A stretch of 63,469 bases of DNA, the filler included, from an uncultured Clostridia bacterium (lineage in GTDB: Bacteria > CAYTYR01 > UBA6262), in NCBI GenBank assembly GCA_964441745.1. It is 3 parts of 3 records of this genome, joined end to end, with 100 filler letters (N's around TTAATTAATTAA, not from the genome) between each part and the next. Parts side by side here need not be neighbours in the genome. Positions count along the whole stretch, not along the records: positions 1 to 24,631 come from CAYTYR010000025.1; 2 more parts are not named here. One strand, written 5' to 3'. Made by a program: the position numbers and the translations under genes. The number at the start of each line of letters is the position of its first letter. Position 1 is the first letter of the stretch. Below the pieces are notes generated by a model, which was not told the DNA's origin, made no database searches, and saw only the letters and a program-made list of their open reading frames with translations. Of the stretch, positions 2,209 to 48,776 are shown piece after piece.

Positions 2209-4044
2209 ATGAGGAGGAACCTTATGTTTAAAAAAGTAATGAGTTGGTTTTTACTGCTATCCGCCATCTGTCCTGTCCCCGCGTCATTGATCCCGATTTT
2301 CGGGATCAGCTGGGGATATCTGCCGTCCGCTTTTGCTGTTTCCCCTGGAGATGTAGTTGTTAACGAAATAATGTGGATGGGCACGGCAGCCTCCAGCTAT
2401 GACGAATGGATTGAGTTGTATAATACCACCGATCAGGATATTAACCTCACGGACTGGGTGCTGAAAAGCGCTGATGGCACGCCGCAAATTATCCTGGCCA
2501 GTACCATTACTGCGCAGGGATATTGTATTTTAGAACGGACTGATGACCTGGTCATTAAGGATATTCCAGCCGATAAAATTTACAGCGGAGCTCTTAGCGA
2601 TACAGGGGAAAGTCTGATTCTAACCGACAGCTATAGTATAGAAATTGATTCCGTACCTTGCAGCAGCGGGTGGTTTGCCGGCGCGAAAGCTCCTTATTAT
2701 TCAATGGAGCGGATTAACCCTGCAGAGAGCGGTTGGCTTAAAACTAACTGGGGAAACAATAATGGCGTTATTATTAACGGGACAGACGCGAACGAGGCCT
2801 CGCTTTTTGCCACACCTCAAGCGCAGAATAGTATTTATTATGACGGGACCAGGGAAGAAGAGCAGACGCCAGATATCCCGGTTGTGGAGCATAAAATAAG
2901 GATTACAGAGGTAGCTTTTGCCGCTCCGACTGATTGGGCGGAGTTATATAATTATGGTGACATGGCGGTAGACATATCCGGCCTGATGCTGACTGACCTG
3001 GATGGCATAGATTCCAGATTAGCCGATAAAACCACGATGTTGGCGCCAGGTCAATATGCCGTAGTCTATTGGGACGAAGCTGGCGCAGATGAAACAGATG
3101 AAGCAGGGGACCTAAATGGTAACAGAGTCGTAGATCTATATCTAGCTGATACTGGCTTATCAGCAACTGATGACGAAGTAGCTTTAATGAGCTCTCCCAG
3201 CGGTGGGCAATACATAGATGCCGTCTGCTGGAGCACGGGTACTGGCGAGTTTGCCAGCAGTGAAGATAAAGACTTAAATTTACTGGTAGATAATGAGCAG
3301 TGGGTCATTGCCGGCGATACGGTTACTAAAAACGACTGTTGGATTGAATCCAGCGTAGTAAAAAGCGATCAATCAATTGGGCGAATAGCTCCAACGACAG
3401 TAGATACCAATACCAAAAATGACTGGTGTTTATTTAAATTGGCTACTGCCGGCATAGATAATCCAAGCCCGGTCTCGCCCCAAGTGACACTGGCCTTTGA
3501 TCCGCCGCCGCCTTTTAAGGAAGGGCAGGTTAAGGTCAGTCTACACATAGAAACCTTGAATTCTATTGTCGAAGCTCCGCGGTTAACTTTTAGTGAAGAT
3601 AATGGAGATGTTAAAGAGATTATTTTAAGCAGAAACGATCAAAACTGGCAGGGGATCCTGGAAATCTCTCAAGTTGAATACGCTAGAGCCATAATCTTGA
3701 AATATGAGGTTACTGATAACGCCAGAAACAGTTGCGAACAGGAAATCACCTATCTTGGACTGGCCTATGTTCCGCCTGAATATGGGGAGAAGCTGTATTG
3801 CTATCCCAATCCCTGGGTCAGGAGTTCCGGCCTAAATCTGAAGTTTTCCAATATAGGAGAGATAGAAAGCTTGATCAAGATATTTACTCTAAATGGGGAA
3901 CAAGTTAAGGCCTTATCTGGCCGAGACGAAATTTATTGGGATGGTACCAATGAAAACGGAGAGAAAGTTGCCGCCGGCATCTATATTTATTATCTGGAAA
4001 ATACCCAATGCGTGAAAAAAGGTAAAGTGGCCATAGTTAGATGA
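2209..4044 (+). CDS. secreted protein with two lamin-tail domains and a C-terminal FlgD-Ig/T9SS-type sorting domain (start possibly 2224)
   Basis: VVVNEIM..WIELYN and IRITEV..WAELYN LTD motifs; YPNP..WDGTN..G..VAAGIYIY..KVAIVR C-terminus; signal peptide. Confidence 0.8.
   Translation: MRRNLMFKKVMSWFLLLSAICPVPASLIPIFGISWGYLPSAFAVSPGDVVVNEIMWMGTAASSYDEWIELYNTTDQDINLTDWVLKSADGTPQIILASTITAQGYCILERTDDLVIKDIPADKIYSGALSDTGESLILTDSYSIEIDSVPCSSGWFAGAKAPYYSMERINPAESGWLKTNWGNNNGVIINGTDANEASLFATPQAQNSIYYDGTREEEQTPDIPVVEHKIRITEVAFAAPTDWAELYNYGDMAVDISGLMLTDLDGIDSRLADKTTMLAPGQYAVVYWDEAGADETDEAGDLNGNRVVDLYLADTGLSATDDEVALMSSPSGGQYIDAVCWSTGTGEFASSEDKDLNLLVDNEQWVIAGDTVTKNDCWIESSVVKSDQSIGRIAPTTVDTNTKNDWCLFKLATAGIDNPSPVSPQVTLAFDPPPPFKEGQVKVSLHIETLNSIVEAPRLTFSEDNGDVKEIILSRNDQNWQGILEISQVEYARAIILKYEVTDNARNSCEQEITYLGLAYVPPEYGEKLYCYPNPWVRSSGLNLKFSNIGEIESLIKIFTLNGEQVKALSGRDEIYWDGTNENGEKVAAGIYIYYLENTQCVKKGKVAIVR
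2272..2316. repeat. 45-nt palindromic cassette inside CDS (near-copy at 22501-22548)
   Basis: cctgtccccgcgtcattgat...atcagc(t/a)gggga shared by both copies; only the central hairpin differs. Confidence 0.85.
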
Positions 4045-4563: not shown

Positions 4564-7068
4564 ATGAGAGCGTTAATAATGGCAGGTGGTTTAGGCACAC
4601 GCCTGAGACCTTTGACCATTAATTTGCCAAAACCAATGGTCCCGGTAGTAAATAAGCCCATGGTCGGGCATATCGTTGACTTGCTGAAAAAACACGGCAT
4701 CAAGGAAATGACTTCGATCTTGTATTTTCAACCCGAGATCATTAAAAACTATTTTGGCGATGGCAGCGCCTTTGGTATCCAGATGGATTATGTGGATGCA
4801 GTTGAAGATTTTGGCACTGCCGGCAGTATCAAAAACGCTGAACAAAATGTCCAGGAAACTTTTATCGTCATTAGCGGGGATGTCTTAACTGATTTTGATT
4901 TGAGCAGCGCCTTAAAATTCCATCGCGAGAAAAAAGCTCTGGCGACTATGGTCCTGACCAGGGTGGCTAATCCCCTGGCTTATGGCGTAGTGATCACGGA
5001 TAAAGACGGAAGGATCGAGCGTTTTCTGGAAAAGCCAGTCTGGGGTGAGGTCTTCAGTGATACGGTTAATACTGGTATTTATATCCTGGAACCAAAGATC
5101 TTCGAATTCATTCCCGCCAAGAAGGAATTTGATTTCAGCCGCAACCTGTTCCCGCAATTACTGGAAGGCAAGCAGCCACTCTATGGCTATATTGCCGATG
5201 GTTATTGGAAGGATATCGGGGACCTGGCCGAATACAGGAACGCTCATAATGATATTCTGACCGGTAAAGTGAAAGTAATGATCCCAGGCAACAAATTAAA
5301 TACTATCGGCCGGGATATTTGGGTTGGGGAAGATAGTGAAATAGATAAGCAGGCAGAATTGAATGGCGGGGTGGTGATCGGTAAGAATTGCGTCATTAAA
5401 GCCGATACCCAGATCACCAACGCGGTCATCGGTGATAATACCCAGGTAGAAGAAGGCGCTAAGATCAACAATTGTGTTATTTGGGAAAATTCCCGCATTG
5501 GCCGAAAAGCCGAGCTGAAAGAAAATATTATTTGCCAAGGGGTAGATATTAGGGCTAAAGCTTTTATCCAGGATGGCGCCGTGATCGCTGACGAATGCGT
5601 GATCGGCGAAGAAGCGCGCATCAAGGACAACGTTAAGCTGTGGCCGCATAAAATAGTTGAAGATGGATCCACTCTTTCCACCAGCCTGGTTTGGGGAGAG
5701 AAGTGGTCAAAAACGCTGTTTGGAGCTTCCGGCATTTCCGGATTAGCTAATATTGAAATGACCCCTGAATTTGTCGCTAAGGTCGGGGCTGCCTACGGCG
5801 CTTTCCTGGGCAAAGGCTCTACGGTGATGACCAGCCGCGATTCACATAAAGCCAGCCGGATGATCAACCGGGCTTTTATTTGCGGCCTGCTTTCCAGCGG
5901 GGTGAACGTTAAGGACCTGAGAAATATTCCGACACCATTATTAAGGTACAACCTGGGCAAAGAAGGGGAAAAAGGAGCTATTCATGTCCGTAAATCTCCT
6001 TATGATCCGCAAGTGATTGATATTAAATTCTTTGATATTGGCGGAGTGGACTTGTCGTTCACCAAGGAAAAATCGATTGAACAATTATTCTTCCGCGAGG
6101 ACTTCCGCCGGGCTAAAGTAGAGGATACCGGTGAATTATCTTTCCCTGGCCGTATTATTGAAGATTACAAAGAAGGTTTTTTGAATGCTATTGATCATAA
6201 AGCTATTAGTGATGCCAGACTGCGGGTAGTGATTGATTATGCTTTTGGCGATGGGGCGACTCTCTTTCCTACGATATTAGGCGAACTTGGTTGTGAAGTT
6301 ATTTCTCTGAATGCCAATATTAATCCGGCTAAATTTACCAAGACGGAGAGCGAATTTAACCAGGCTTGGAAAAAGCTGGCTGATATTACAGTGGCTTTAA
6401 AAGCGGATATAGGTTTTATGCTGGACACCGGCGGGGAAAAACTGTTCCTGGTGGACGAAAAAGGACAAGTGTTGACCGATGATAAAGCTTTAGCCCTGGT
6501 CGCTACCTTGGTCATGCGTGAGAAAAAAGGAGCCAGGATCGGGATCCCGGTCACGGCCAGCAGGGTGATTGAAGAAATGGCTAAAAAGTACCAGGCTGAG
6601 ATCATCCGCACAAAAACAACGCCGCGCTCGATCATGGAACAAGCTTTGAAAAAAGAGCAGGATCTGCTGGGCGATAATCTGGGCGGTTTTATTTTCCCGA
6701 ATTTCATGGGAGCTTTTGACGCGATGTTTTCCATGGCCAAGATCCTGGAATTGATCGCCAAACAGAAAGTGCATTTGAACCAGCTGGATGAAGAATTACC
6801 CAAAGTCCATTTCCGTAAAGAACGTGTTCCCTGTGCCTGGGCGGCCAAAGGGACAGTGATGCGCAATCTGGTACAGCGAGCCAAGGATAACGGCGAAAAA
6901 TTCGAATTGATCGATGGGATCAAGATTTTTAATAAAGACTACTGGGTCCTGCTGATCCCGGATCCGGACAAACCATTTTTTAATATTCACGTTGAATCTG
7001 AGTCCAGTAATAAACTGCTGGAAGTCATTAATAAGTATAAGAAGAGAATACAGGAAAGCCAGGCATGA
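4564..7068 (+). CDS. mannose-1-phosphate guanylyltransferase-like NTP transferase, hexapeptide repeats and degenerate phosphomannomutase-fold fusion
   Basis: GGLGTRLRPLT...PKP motif, LbH repeats, C-terminal PGM/PMM fold; GGAGG SD before ATG 4564. Confidence 0.9.
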   Translation: MRALIMAGGLGTRLRPLTINLPKPMVPVVNKPMVGHIVDLLKKHGIKEMTSILYFQPEIIKNYFGDGSAFGIQMDYVDAVEDFGTAGSIKNAEQNVQETFIVISGDVLTDFDLSSALKFHREKKALATMVLTRVANPLAYGVVITDKDGRIERFLEKPVWGEVFSDTVNTGIYILEPKIFEFIPAKKEFDFSRNLFPQLLEGKQPLYGYIADGYWKDIGDLAEYRNAHNDILTGKVKVMIPGNKLNTIGRDIWVGEDSEIDKQAELNGGVVIGKNCVIKADTQITNAVIGDNTQVEEGAKINNCVIWENSRIGRKAELKENIICQGVDIRAKAFIQDGAVIADECVIGEEARIKDNVKLWPHKIVEDGSTLSTSLVWGEKWSKTLFGASGISGLANIEMTPEFVAKVGAAYGAFLGKGSTVMTSRDSHKASRMINRAFICGLLSSGVNVKDLRNIPTPLLRYNLGKEGEKGAIHVRKSPYDPQVIDIKFFDIGGVDLSFTKEKSIEQLFFREDFRRAKVEDTGELSFPGRIIEDYKEGFLNAIDHKAISDARLRVVIDYAFGDGATLFPTILGELGCEVISLNANINPAKFTKTESEFNQAWKKLADITVALKADIGFMLDTGGEKLFLVDEKGQVLTDDKALALVATLVMREKKGARIGIPVTASRVIEEMAKKYQAEIIRTKTTPRSIMEQALKKEQDLLGDNLGGFIFPNFMGAFDAMFSMAKILELIAKQKVHLNQLDEELPKVHFRKERVPCAWAAKGTVMRNLVQRAKDNGEKFELIDGIKIFNKDYWVLLIPDPDKPFFNIHVESESSNKLLEVINKYKKRIQESQA

Positions 7069-7133: not shown

Positions 7134-8600
7134 ATGGAAATAAAATTTGGGACCAGCGGTTGGCGGGGCGTTATTAGCGACGAATTCACTTTCGAGAATG
7201 TGGAAATCGTCACCCAGGCCATCTGCGATTATATAAAAGAAAGTCAGCGGACAGCGGACAGCGGACCCGCCACTAAAGCGTCGGCGGGCAGGCACCGGTC
7301 ACAAGTGATTATTGGTTACGATACCAGATTCTTTAGCGAAAAGTTTGCAGAGGTAACCTCTGCAGTTATAGCCGCGAACGGTTTGCAGGCATTGTTAACC
7401 AAACGCGATACACCAACCCCGACTATTGCCTTTGAGATCCTCCGGCGCAAGGCGGCGGGAGGAATAAATTTTACGGCCAGCCATAATCCAGCCCAGTACA
7501 ATGGTATTAAATTCTCTCCTGCCTGGGGCGGACCAGCATTACCAGAAACTACCAGTGCTATTGAAGAGAACTGCAAAAAATATCTAGCGCAGCCACACTT
7601 GGTTAAGAAAATGTCGTTTGCCGAGGCACTTAATAAACGCTACATACTGATGATCGATCCCCGGCCCCAGTATTTAAATAGATTAAGAAAAATTATTGAC
7701 TTGCCGGCGATCAGGAAAGCCCGTTTGAAAATAGCGGTTGATGTCCTTTATGGCGCTGGTCGGGACTACTTGGATGAATTGTTAAAAGAAGCTGGTGTCA
7801 GGATGCATCTTCTGCATAACTGGCGCGACGTTCTTTTCGGCGGCCGGCCGCCGGAACCGTCATTTGAGAATATACCGGAAATGGTAAAGGCAGTTAAGAA
7901 AGAAAAATGTCACCTGGGACTGGGGACTGACGGTGATGCTGACCGGTTTGGGATCATTGATGAAAAAGGTAATTATATCCAGCCTGGCCATGTGATCGCC
8001 TTGCTGCTGGACCATTTGCAGAAAACCAGGAAATGGCCAGGAGTAGTTGCCCGCTCCGTAATGACCACCAATTTTATCGACGCTGTAGCCAGAAAACATG
8101 GCGTAACATTACGAGAAACCCCGGTTGGTTTTAAATATATTGGCGATATCCTGGTCAAAGAGGGTTTGATCATCGGCGGTGAAGAAAGCGGTGGTTTGAC
8201 CGTGCATGGCCATGTACCGGAAAAAGATGGGATCTTGGCCTGCTTATTAGTGGCGGAAATGATTGCTTACCAGAGAAAACCGCTGAGCCGTATCCTGGCG
8301 GACTTGTACCGGGAAGTCGGTGTGTTTCTTTTTGCCAGGGTCAATTTCCATGTAACTCCGGAACGCATGAATGAATTGAAACAAAACCTCAAGCAAACTC
8401 CTCCGGTCAGCATTGCCGGGATTAAAGTGCAAAAAATTATTACCATTGATGGCTTTAAGTTTATCCTGGAAGATGGCAGTTGGGTCGGTTTGCGTTTGTC
8501 GGGGACTGAACCAGTAGTCCGGTATTATGCCGAAGCAAACAGTAATGCCAAGCTACGGAAATTAATCAGTGCCGGTAAAGTTCTAGTACATAGGCAATAA
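7134..8600 (+). CDS. phosphoglucomutase/phosphomannomutase
   Basis: FGTSGWRG, TASHNP, DGDADR, GEESGG and SGTEP motifs. Confidence 0.95.
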   Translation: MEIKFGTSGWRGVISDEFTFENVEIVTQAICDYIKESQRTADSGPATKASAGRHRSQVIIGYDTRFFSEKFAEVTSAVIAANGLQALLTKRDTPTPTIAFEILRRKAAGGINFTASHNPAQYNGIKFSPAWGGPALPETTSAIEENCKKYLAQPHLVKKMSFAEALNKRYILMIDPRPQYLNRLRKIIDLPAIRKARLKIAVDVLYGAGRDYLDELLKEAGVRMHLLHNWRDVLFGGRPPEPSFENIPEMVKAVKKEKCHLGLGTDGDADRFGIIDEKGNYIQPGHVIALLLDHLQKTRKWPGVVARSVMTTNFIDAVARKHGVTLRETPVGFKYIGDILVKEGLIIGGEESGGLTVHGHVPEKDGILACLLVAEMIAYQRKPLSRILADLYREVGVFLFARVNFHVTPERMNELKQNLKQTPPVSIAGIKVQKIITIDGFKFILEDGSWVGLRLSGTEPVVRYYAEANSNAKLRKLISAGKVLVHRQ

Positions 8601-22429: not shown

Positions 22430-22433
22430 AGGC

Positions 22434-22567
22434 AATTATGAGTTTTGAATTTTGAGTTTTAAATTAATGTAAAAAGCTTTTTACCTAAACTCAAAACTTA
22501 CCTGTCCCCGCGTCATTGATTTGTCCTTTAAGACAAATCAGCAGGGGAAAACTTATAACTCAAAACT
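22434..22567. repeat. 7-nt inverted repeat arms with a nested 48-nt palindromic cassette (22501-22548)
   Basis: agttttg-aattttg-agtttta ... aactcaa-aactta[cassette]a-aacttat-aactcaa. Confidence 0.8.
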
Positions 22568-22586
22568 GGTTTTAAGGGTTAAGATT

Positions 22587-23135
22587 ATGCCAATCAAGAA
22601 AAATTTCATTATTCTAGTCGTGGGATTGCTCTTGCTGAATGGTTGTGCGGGTAGTGTGGTTAATTGGGGCATCAAAATGCAGTCCCCGGTACCTGCGGAA
22701 ACAACTGCCTATAGTGATGAAGATATAGAGATTATGTTCTTGGTGGATGATAAAAGTATTAGTTTTGACTTAAAAAACAAAACCCAGAACGGGATTAAGT
22801 TAAATTATGATGAGATGTCGTATCTTTCTCCTGGCGGGGTGAGTTTACGGGTCGTTTCCAGTAATATCCGTTTTTCTGACCGTTTTGCTCCGCAAGCCGC
22901 GGTGGTTGTACCTCCTGGATTATCAATTTCCGAGACCATCATTCCGGCGCAAAACATTTCTTTCCGGACTAATAGTATGGATTATTATGGCTGGGATGTT
23001 GGACCTTTGTTCCCTAATGACGCGGAAACGTATCTTGGAAAGGAATTTGGCTTGTATTTCCCGATGGAGATCAGGGGAACAAAAAAAGAGTTTATTTTCA
23101 AGTTTTTAATTACTTCTACGGAAAAGAAGAAATAA
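22587..23135 (+). CDS. hypothetical lipoprotein
   Basis: MPIKK, hydrophobic stretch, LNGC lipobox. Confidence 0.75.
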   Translation: MPIKKNFIILVVGLLLLNGCAGSVVNWGIKMQSPVPAETTAYSDEDIEIMFLVDDKSISFDLKNKTQNGIKLNYDEMSYLSPGGVSLRVVSSNIRFSDRFAPQAAVVVPPGLSISETIIPAQNISFRTNSMDYYGWDVGPLFPNDAETYLGKEFGLYFPMEIRGTKKEFIFKFLITSTEKKK

Positions 23136-24631: not shown

Positions 24632-24731
24632 NNNNNNNNNNNNNNNNNNNNNNNNNNNNNNNNNNNNNNNNNNNNTTAATTAATTAANNNNNNNNNNNNN
24701 NNNNNNNNNNNNNNNNNNNNNNNNNNNNNNN
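24632..24731. other. artificial contig linker
   Basis: N44-TTAATTAATTAA-N44 (stops in all six frames). Confidence 0.98.
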
Positions 24732-48676: not shown

Positions 48677-48776
48677 NNNNNNNNNNNNNNNNNNNNNNNN
48701 NNNNNNNNNNNNNNNNNNNNTTAATTAATTAANNNNNNNNNNNNNNNNNNNNNNNNNNNNNNNNNNNNNNNNNNNN
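48677..48776. other. artificial contig linker
   Basis: N44-TTAATTAATTAA-N44. Confidence 0.98.

Follow-up and report, generated by a model that had tools for sequence, protein, structure and literature searches.

A very small palindromic module at heptamer-repeat boundaries, probably mobile, in one genus of uncultured bacteria

How does a palindrome of 45 nucleotides (nt) come to lie in frame within the signal peptide of a bacterial surface protein, and is it the kind of DNA that moves? The question is raised by a 63,469-nt stretch of DNA (the window), joined from pieces of GenBank assembly GCA_964441745.1, which is recorded as an uncultured Clostridia bacterium. Positions 1-24631 of the window are one contig (C25) of this genome, here called G000 (2,069,592 bp, 39 contigs, 44.6% G+C), and the pieces beyond the N runs at 24632-24675, 24688-24731, 48677-48720 and 48733-48776 lie off that contig. 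The palindrome belongs to a family, F1, that is likely to be a non-autonomous, very small mobile module that takes array boundaries as its site and is sometimes read through in genes. The initial annotation had marked two cassettes, one of 45 nt and one of 48 nt, and both are found where it placed them:

2272..2316, plus strand: F1 copy of 45 nt, CCTGTCCCCGCGTCATTGAT-cccgattttcggg-ATCAGCTGGGGA
22501..22548, plus strand: F1 twin of 48 nt, intergenic, 38 nt upstream of ATG 22587 of a lipoprotein gene; same arms around ttgtcctttaagacaa; ATCAGCAGGGGA

The hairpin and its family

Both window copies have a common 20-nt left arm, CCTGTCCCCGCGTCATTGAT, and a right arm ATCAGC(T/A)GGGGA, and the apical hairpin between them is cccgattttcggg in one and ttgtcctttaagacaa in the other. 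The window has exactly two occurrences of the left arm, and 100 dinucleotide shuffles have none. The copy at 2272..2316 opens with an unpaired CCTG tag, followed by a 41-nt hairpin with a 5-bp foot, TCCCC/GGGGA; above the foot come a 1-nt bulge, a 2-bp GC/GC step, a 5-nt bulge, a TGAT/ATCA stem and the apical cccgattttcggg. Folded as single-stranded DNA, both copies give ....(((((((.....(((((((((...))))))))))).))))) with free energies of -14.4 and -12.2 kcal/mol (z about -5), and equally stable folds arise in 0 of 200 shuffles. Across the family the size ranges from 44 to 50 nt. The CCTG tag is conserved despite having no pairing partner, with C1 and C2 at least 90% conserved.

An alignment of 48 copies, 22 from G000 and 26 from loci of five sister genomes, leaves T3, G4, CCCGC, TTGAT, ATCAGC and GGGG invariant. 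Most variation falls on positions 12-15, position 40 (A/T) and the apical hairpin, and these places coincide with the 5-nt bulge, the 1-nt bulge and the hairpin tip. Standard pairs fill 97.6% of 626 alignment cells, compared with 86.5% after shuffling and at most 53.7% when the partners are slid. Six apical pairs vary on both sides, and nine of the eleven lower pairs are invariant. This covariation reflects a few alternative apical hairpins rather than many independent events, and it does not tell a DNA fold from an RNA fold.

The further copies expected from the window exist. A genome-wide search with the left arm, allowing up to three mismatches, finds 21 copies in the 2.07 Mb of G000, most of them in 7-nt arrays, and a fuller pattern finds 23. 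The closest two lie 2.2 kb apart (C29:11432 and 13677), and a crude call of open reading frames (ORFs) puts 9 copies in sense and 14 in antisense orientation to their neighbouring genes. The exact pattern GTCCCCGC-N3-5-TTGAT-N6-24-ATCAGCWGGGG was run on nine genomes of the phylum. It matches in all six genomes of the genus (G000 22, G005 24, G001 8, G002 7, G003 5, G004 4), and it gives 0 matches in G006, from another genus of the same family, and 0 in G007 and G008, from the same class; a reversed-pattern control matches nowhere in the nine. F1 is therefore a genus-restricted family with 4-24 copies per genome.

Wider searches agree with this distribution. A scan of 185,579 species, one genome each, returns 48 F1 stretches, all on contigs of five metagenome-assembled genome (MAG) records, titled twice as Elusimicrobia bacterium, twice as 'bacterium' and once as 'uncultured Clostridia bacterium'; no cyanobacterial genome in the scan matches. 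A metagenome collection adds 15 stretches, most between other 7-nt units (TTGACTT, CCTGATA, TCGTAAT), including one apparent chance match within coding sequence and two with a different tag, and viral contigs give 0 matches. An Rfam covariance-model scan of window positions 1-24631, at E up to 1, finds three tRNAs only and matches neither F1 copy. In the literature on Elusimicrobia and on extragenic palindromes, only background papers and no description of F1 were found.

The apical hairpin behaves as a part that can be exchanged. It is found as CCCGATTTATCGGG and, within the same frame, as the reverse complement CCCGATAAATCGGG, and the apical loop is likewise flipped, with TTTA and its reverse complement TAAA in one frame. 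A sister family shares these parts:

F2: CCTGT-CCCCCCTG..AGTT-hairpin-AACTAGGGGGG, ending AGGGGGG, with TTAGAT/ATCTA variants; for example C3:47930-47970 and C20:7361-7401

F2 has 16 exact matches in G000 and is present in five of the six genus genomes and in none of the three others. Chimeras of the two families place either the F1 TTGAT/ATCA step and apical hairpin or the CCCGATAAATCGGG tip in an F2 frame. The apical hairpin of F1 is thus an exchangeable module, swapped, flipped and shared with F2, which upholds and extends the proposal that the arms are kept while the centre is swapped.

Turnover, insertion sites and translated copies

Evidence for mobility comes from orthologous sites. Among 25 F1 loci of G001-G005 compared with G000, 23 have syntenic flanks, at 72-92% identity. 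A copy in the same place is found at two of these, one in a surface protein gene with Lamin Tail Domains (LTD), which holds the first window copy, and one at C13:9427, where the copies of G000 and G002 are identical over 46/46 nt. At one site (C22) there is an independent copy in the opposite arm of the same heptamer pair, in reversed orientation; at another (L066, G000 C20:7365) G000 has F2 within unchanged flanks where G005 has F1. The remaining 19 have nothing of the F1 kind in G000. In four clean filled/empty pairs the difference is exactly 45 nt, CCTG...GGGGA/G, and the target is not duplicated:

L041/C31 and L055/C30: GTTTA^GARTTT, with C31 and C30 empty in G000
C22: filled in G000 and empty in G003, same GTTTA^GARTTT junction on the other strand
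L065/C6: TAATCTGKG^TAATCG

An insertion at a non-array site, TTTAAACTACGAGG (L069/C6), has a 4-5-nt duplication, and in the remaining pairs, which are not clean, the whole heptamer region differs. Gains and losses of F1 involve a discrete 45-nt unit and no target-site duplication, and copies turn over quickly from species to species. Because presence and absence alternate at orthologous sites with exact 45-nt boundaries, these comparisons support the earlier suggestion of a small non-autonomous mobile palindrome.

The twin at 22501 is found in one of six species; the five sister species have no F1 there despite conserved flanking genes. The gap that holds it (window 22431-22640, and L143-L147 in the relatives) contains a different inverted heptamer-array pair in each of the six congeneric species, with units such as GAGTTTT, AGCTCNN, TTGACAC, GAGTTAN and AGTGGTA, between flanking genes that are 78-86% identical. 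The copy at C13:9379-9427 of G000 (L043 in G002) is the sole intergenic copy kept in place between two species, and the stretch around it is unusually conserved (about 95% over more than 200 nt) and may hold a small RNA or leader.

Heptamer arrays are the usual setting. In G000 they fill the intergenic spaces and also lie in a few coding linkers and signal peptides. G000 has 125 period-7 tandem arrays at a Tandem Repeats Finder (TRF) score of at least 40, compared with 0, 6, 36 and 15 arrays for periods 5, 6, 8 and 9; 28 of the 125 fall in crude ORF calls. One array in the window, CAGCGGA x3.1 at 7245-7266, lies about 37 codons into a 488-amino-acid (aa) ORF. Both window cassettes sit exactly between two 7-nt units:

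2258..2271, plus strand: two 7-nt units 5' of the LTD insert, TATCCGC CATCTGT
2317..2337, plus strand: three 7-nt units 3' of the LTD insert, TATCTGC CGTCCGC TTTTGCT
22487..22500, plus strand: two 7-nt units 5' of the twin, AAACTCA AAACTTA
22549..22569, plus strand: three 7-nt units 3' of the twin, AAACTTA TAACTCA AAACTGG
22440..22460, plus strand: inverted partner array of the twin, GAGTTTT GAATTTT GAGTTTT, pairing with the AAACTCA units in a 146-nt fold

The periodic flanks that the initial annotation described are confirmed in this register, TATCCGC-CATCTGT-(45 nt)-TATCTGC-CGTCCGC and AAACTCA-AAACTTA-(48 nt)-AAACTTA-TAACTCA. When F1 is taken out and the flanks of the 23 copies are joined, they give a lag-7 match of 0.529, compared with 0.317 at 5000 random intergenic sites, and 0 of 20,000 resamples reach the observed mean. 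A period-7 match of at least 0.5 is found in 17 of 23 copies and in 7.6% of controls. These figures do not represent 23 independent events, because the copies are related and their flanks fall into classes:

AAACTYA^AAACTYA
TTGTTTA^GAGTTTAGATATT, part of a composite of about 200 nt
TAATCTGTG^TAATC, a fixed motif and not a clean heptamer run
CATCTGT^YATCTGC, the coding type
several singletons

F1 thus usually inserts at the boundary between two 7-nt tandem units, and it keeps the same boundaries in at least 10 different flank contexts. The proposed targeting of periodic runs therefore describes most copies, and the TAATCTGTG^TAATC class departs from it. Partner array and twin region together make up a composite of about 130 nt, which is also present at other loci; stretches of 130-142 nt with the twin reappear at 87-90% identity elsewhere in G000, in G004 and in G002, so part of F1 spread is as cargo of larger composites. 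Many copies have probably spread within such heptamer-hairpin composites of 130-200 nt.

A strict tetranucleotide target of the IS608 type was considered and dropped, since the four nucleotides before F1 vary (TTTA, CTCA, CTTA, TGTG, CTGT and others). The site consensus, YTTR^...ANARYYT, is loose and confounded by the flank classes. Four loci (L024, upstream of 66337 on G000:C5, and L029, L056 and L067) have another palindromic module, tccgcc-agag-gcgga tccgcc..ggcgga, in AAACTCA/GAGTTTT arrays beside F1, which suggests that several module families share the heptamer-array habitat.

Two copies are translated. The first lies in the signal peptide of the LTD protein:

2224..4044, plus strand: gene for a secreted surface protein of 606 aa, with two Lamin Tail Domains and a CHU_C/T9SS-type (type IX) C-terminal sorting domain, the latter a weak match
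2224..2349, plus strand: signal-peptide coding stretch, MFKK...PSAFA before VSPGD, 42 aa with the insert

Translation probably starts at ATG 2224, which follows GGAGGA, rather than at ATG 2209, and the AxA pattern places the predicted cleavage after PSAFA. As the initial annotation had it, the gene copy is in frame: 15 codons give C-PVPASLIPIFGISWG-Y, with PVPASLIPIFGISWG between C16 and Y32 of the 42-aa presequence. Alignment of the orthologues agrees with an insertion. Where the insert is lacking, 20-27 aa precede the conserved (A/Q/S)PGDVV. Four of the five orthologues (G001, G002, G003 and G006) do not have the 15 aa; G004 alone has them, at the same place, and its copy matches that of G000 at 43/45 positions, with differences in the loop only. 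At the insert site G001 has CCGCTGT x3 and G003 has CTACGAA x2, and G002 and G006 have no 7-nt units. The three perfect CCGCTGT units in the G001 signal peptide (L004) could slip by 7 nt and so switch that gene off and on. Over the LTD locus G003 and G004 are mutually closest (84.7% identity), with G000 at about 75% to both, so the insert is either old and lost in G003, or arose twice, or was transferred.

The second translated copy, in G001, is antisense and in frame. It is read as CPLLIPEIGINDAGTG, 16 aa, within a 24-aa insertion of the PcrA/UvrD linker between UvrD_C and the Tudor domain, and this insertion is absent from the other five genomes. The two coding copies give different peptides because they are read in opposite orientations. 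The expectation that the element adds peptide to proteins is thus met twice, in 2 of about 49 copies examined (23 in G000 and 26 on 25 loci of relatives), with a third possible. Among the 23 copies of G000, the LTD copy is the only one surely within a gene; the others stand before start codons or after stops. One of these (L021, G000:C2:47042-47088) lies ahead of an ApbE-like lipoprotein gene, and it would be coding, as TCPRFFDLFRRTNQQGK in the basic N-region of the lipoprotein signal peptide, if an ATG 20 codons upstream is the start.

Routes of spread and competing explanations

An F1 copy that lands in a tolerant coding stretch is read through, adding peptide to a signal peptide or linker, since its length divides by three and more than one frame has no stop. 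For the copying step itself we infer two routes, which are about equally likely. In the first, a single-strand hairpin intermediate would be handled in trans by an HUH Y1 enzyme of the REP-associated tyrosine transposase (RAYT) or IS200-like kind (REP, repetitive extragenic palindrome); this would fit insertion without duplication and the tag-plus-hairpin design. In the second, spread would be enzyme-free, through template switching or through ectopic gene conversion among arrays with units in common, and this route would explain the missing duplication, the flank classes, the shared flanks of the coding copies and the small duplication at L069.

Candidate enzymes for the first route are present, as the initial annotation had supposed. 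G000 has eight Y1_Tnp matches, and one 315-aa protein scores 81.3 bits on NF047646 (REP-associated tyrosine transposases; cut-off 80). In four to five intact genes of about 315 aa, Y1_Tnp is joined to a DnaA-type helix-turn-helix (HTH) domain (G000:C22:25848, C1:182900, C1:186764, C8:5426). On both sides these genes have inverted ends of their own, ..CCTGACCCCAWT, followed downstream by tandem copies, and solo ends occur at C7:101185 and C9:84123. None of the RAYT-type genes is flanked by F1 or F2, so the supposed RAYT link is conjectural. The gene ends begin CCTGACCCC, 8/9 like the F1 start CCTGTCCCC, a likeness that is no more than a lead, since 9-mers of this sort are frequent in G000. Over the nine phylum genomes, a very small sample, the presence of Y1_Tnp does not discriminate genomes with F1 from those without.

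Several observations weigh against reading F1 as a mobile element in its own right. No transposition event or intermediate was seen. The only sequencing runs with the locus are three DNA runs from one study, none of RNA; at the LTD locus their contigs contain no variant, joint or skipped form, and one contig ends within the left arm, an assembly break at the repeat, a result that counts neither for nor against mobility. Copy numbers are low, 4-24 per genome. Six longer Y1_Tnp genes among the eight matches have neither F1 nor F2 beside them, their flanks being GACCCCAWT repeats, and in G006 a Y1_Tnp gene is present and F1 is not. Between G000 and G004 the LTD copy matches at 43/45 positions where the gene body is 75.8% identical (binomial p = 4.5e-4), which could also mean that the sequence is constrained in place. 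The LTD and PcrA/UvrD copies share 64 nt, including flanking units, at 95% identity. Flank classes are few and are tracked by subfamily variants: a GG.. bulge with a CCCGAT hairpin goes with TAATCTGTG^TAATC flanks, and a TTGTCC hairpin mostly with AAACTYA. Since, in addition, F1-bearing composites of about 130 nt recur at 86-95% identity, much of the spread may be passive.

Taken to its end, this line of argument makes F1 a passenger, not itself mobile, that moves with larger heptamer-hairpin composites (class A of about 130 nt, class B of about 200 nt, and the TAATCTGTG/TAATC class) by duplication and ectopic gene conversion. The few flank classes and the variants that follow them, the recurrence of the twin-bearing 130-142-nt stretches in three genomes, and the flanking units common to both coding copies all agree with it, as do same-class composites with and without F1 within and between genomes (C31 and C30 are empty in G000) and the missing target duplication that conversion predicts. 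Yet the boundaries are identical in at least 10 unrelated flank contexts, among them the non-array site at L069 and two coding ones, so at least some precise, homology-poor insertions are needed. F1 and F2 also swap inside unchanged flanks at L066/C20, and apical hairpins are exchanged independently of flanks. As the whole account, passive carriage therefore seems unlikely. If instead the hairpin were a selected cis-acting site, for example a protein-binding DNA or RNA hairpin for mRNA stability, translation pausing or nucleoid organisation, with dispersal secondary, one would understand why its stems are invariant in 48 copies whose six source species share roughly 75-90% genome identity, why the LTD and C13:9427 copies are so well conserved, and why all 23 G000 copies lie between co-directional genes or within a gene. 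Invariant stems are equally expected if intact hairpins alone can be copied, however, and copies occur in both orientations, are kept in place at only 2 of 23 syntenic sites, vary 6-fold in number between sister species, match nothing in Rfam and have no terminator T-run, which leaves a host function very improbable.

Mixed gene orientation argues for an element that acts at the DNA level over a strand-specific RNA; with the coding copies on opposite strands and no Rfam match, a strand-specific RNA role is unlikely. Four further identifications were set aside: a K-turn, as the non-bulged strand has no GA/AG motif; a terminator, as no T-run follows the hairpin; attC, as the R-box consensus is absent; and a CRISPR repeat, as the copies are not in arrays. 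The reading of F1 as a very small mobile module could be widened. Heptamer arrays and palindrome-in-palindrome modules might form one self-propagating system driven by an enzyme dedicated to handling hairpins, perhaps the Y1 transposases that carry a DnaA-type HTH, in which apical hairpins, F1 and F2 frames and heptamer units would be added at unit boundaries and hairpin tips. This extension is doubtful. If true, it would be the smallest class of enzyme-mobilised element beyond the cyanobacteria, and it would generate peptide segments de novo, routinely supplying proteins with new signal-peptide and linker sequence.

Place among known small repeats

F1 is a new family of an already known kind, the very small mobile palindromic repeat. 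[quoted passage not shown] IS200/IS605 elements make no target duplication and insert beside a duplicated site rather than into it. F1 differs from MITEs in falling below their 70-300-bp range, in lacking terminal inverted repeats of 15-30 bp and in showing no target-site duplication in the four clean pairs (4-5 nt at L069), and it is a single hairpin without the distinct left and right ends of MITEs and IS200/IS605-type elements.

The design of F1 is REP-like. REP and REPIN sequences, as far as two accounts of them describe (Bertels & Rainey 2011, PMC3116915; Di Nocera et al. 2013, PMC3733652), are likewise short imperfect palindromes with a conserved unpaired terminal tetranucleotide, mostly extragenic and lineage-specific, in genomes with RAYT-family genes. 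F1 is slightly longer than a typical REP (a 20-40-nt imperfect palindrome), and its tag is CCTG where REPs have GTAG or CGTC; CGTC occurs in F1 only within the variable 5-nt bulge. F1 copies are singletons, 4-24 in number, whereas those accounts give inverted doublets and hundreds of copies for REP/REPIN. Unlike RAYT-associated REPs, F1 does not flank the RAYT genes, which have inverted ends of their own, a situation that Di Nocera et al. report for some species too. By tag, doublets, copy number and flanking of RAYT genes, F1 therefore fails the features of RAYT-associated REPs.

The analogy with Rickettsia palindromic elements holds for in-frame read-through and for nothing beyond it. Those elements are about 150 bp long, lie in ORFs in nearly half of cases and encode a conserved peptide, according to a review's summary (PMC10969869). 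Like them, on that summary, F1 is palindromic selfish DNA that sits in frame in genes and is translated without destroying the protein. At 45 nt it is three times smaller, rarely coding and read into peptides from opposite strands; the two are set apart by description.

The closest match in behaviour is the small dispersed repeats (SDRs) of cyanobacteria. The setting is alike, a genome rich in heptamer arrays, and SDRs are reportedly found within heptamer arrays or inside each other. According to papers that cite the SDR work, SDR5 splits the HIP1 palindrome precisely after its 3rd and before its 4th nt, and only Nostocaceae have SDRs. SDR4-6 of Nostocaceae, with their heptanucleotide short tandemly repeated repetitive (STRR) arrays, share with F1 a size below that of MITEs, a non-coding nature, precise insertion within repeats or palindromes and a narrow lineage. 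F1 belongs to another phylum, measures 45 nt where SDRs measure 21-27 nt, and has a CCTG tag, two defined bulges and in-frame coding copies; its sequence is unrelated as far as can be judged from SDR1-8 as known here by description only.

These comparisons give the family its interest. Mobile DNA below 50 nt is, to our knowledge, poorly documented, and Nostocaceae provide the only detailed description we know of. F1 places such modules in an unrelated, uncultivated lineage with a 2-Mb genome, where units of less than 50 nt can be tracked by exact filled and empty sites, and it shows that they can add length to proteins where this is tolerated, here in a signal peptide and in a linker between domains. 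Its 45-nt hairpin is a concrete substrate and the 315-aa Y1 and HTH proteins are candidate enzymes, so F1 bears on the question of whether REP-like repeats away from a RAYT gene are mobilised in trans or spread without an enzyme. The family shows that a sub-50-nt module, through insertion at unit boundaries, swapped and flipped hairpins, and F1/F2 chimeras, works like an SDR.

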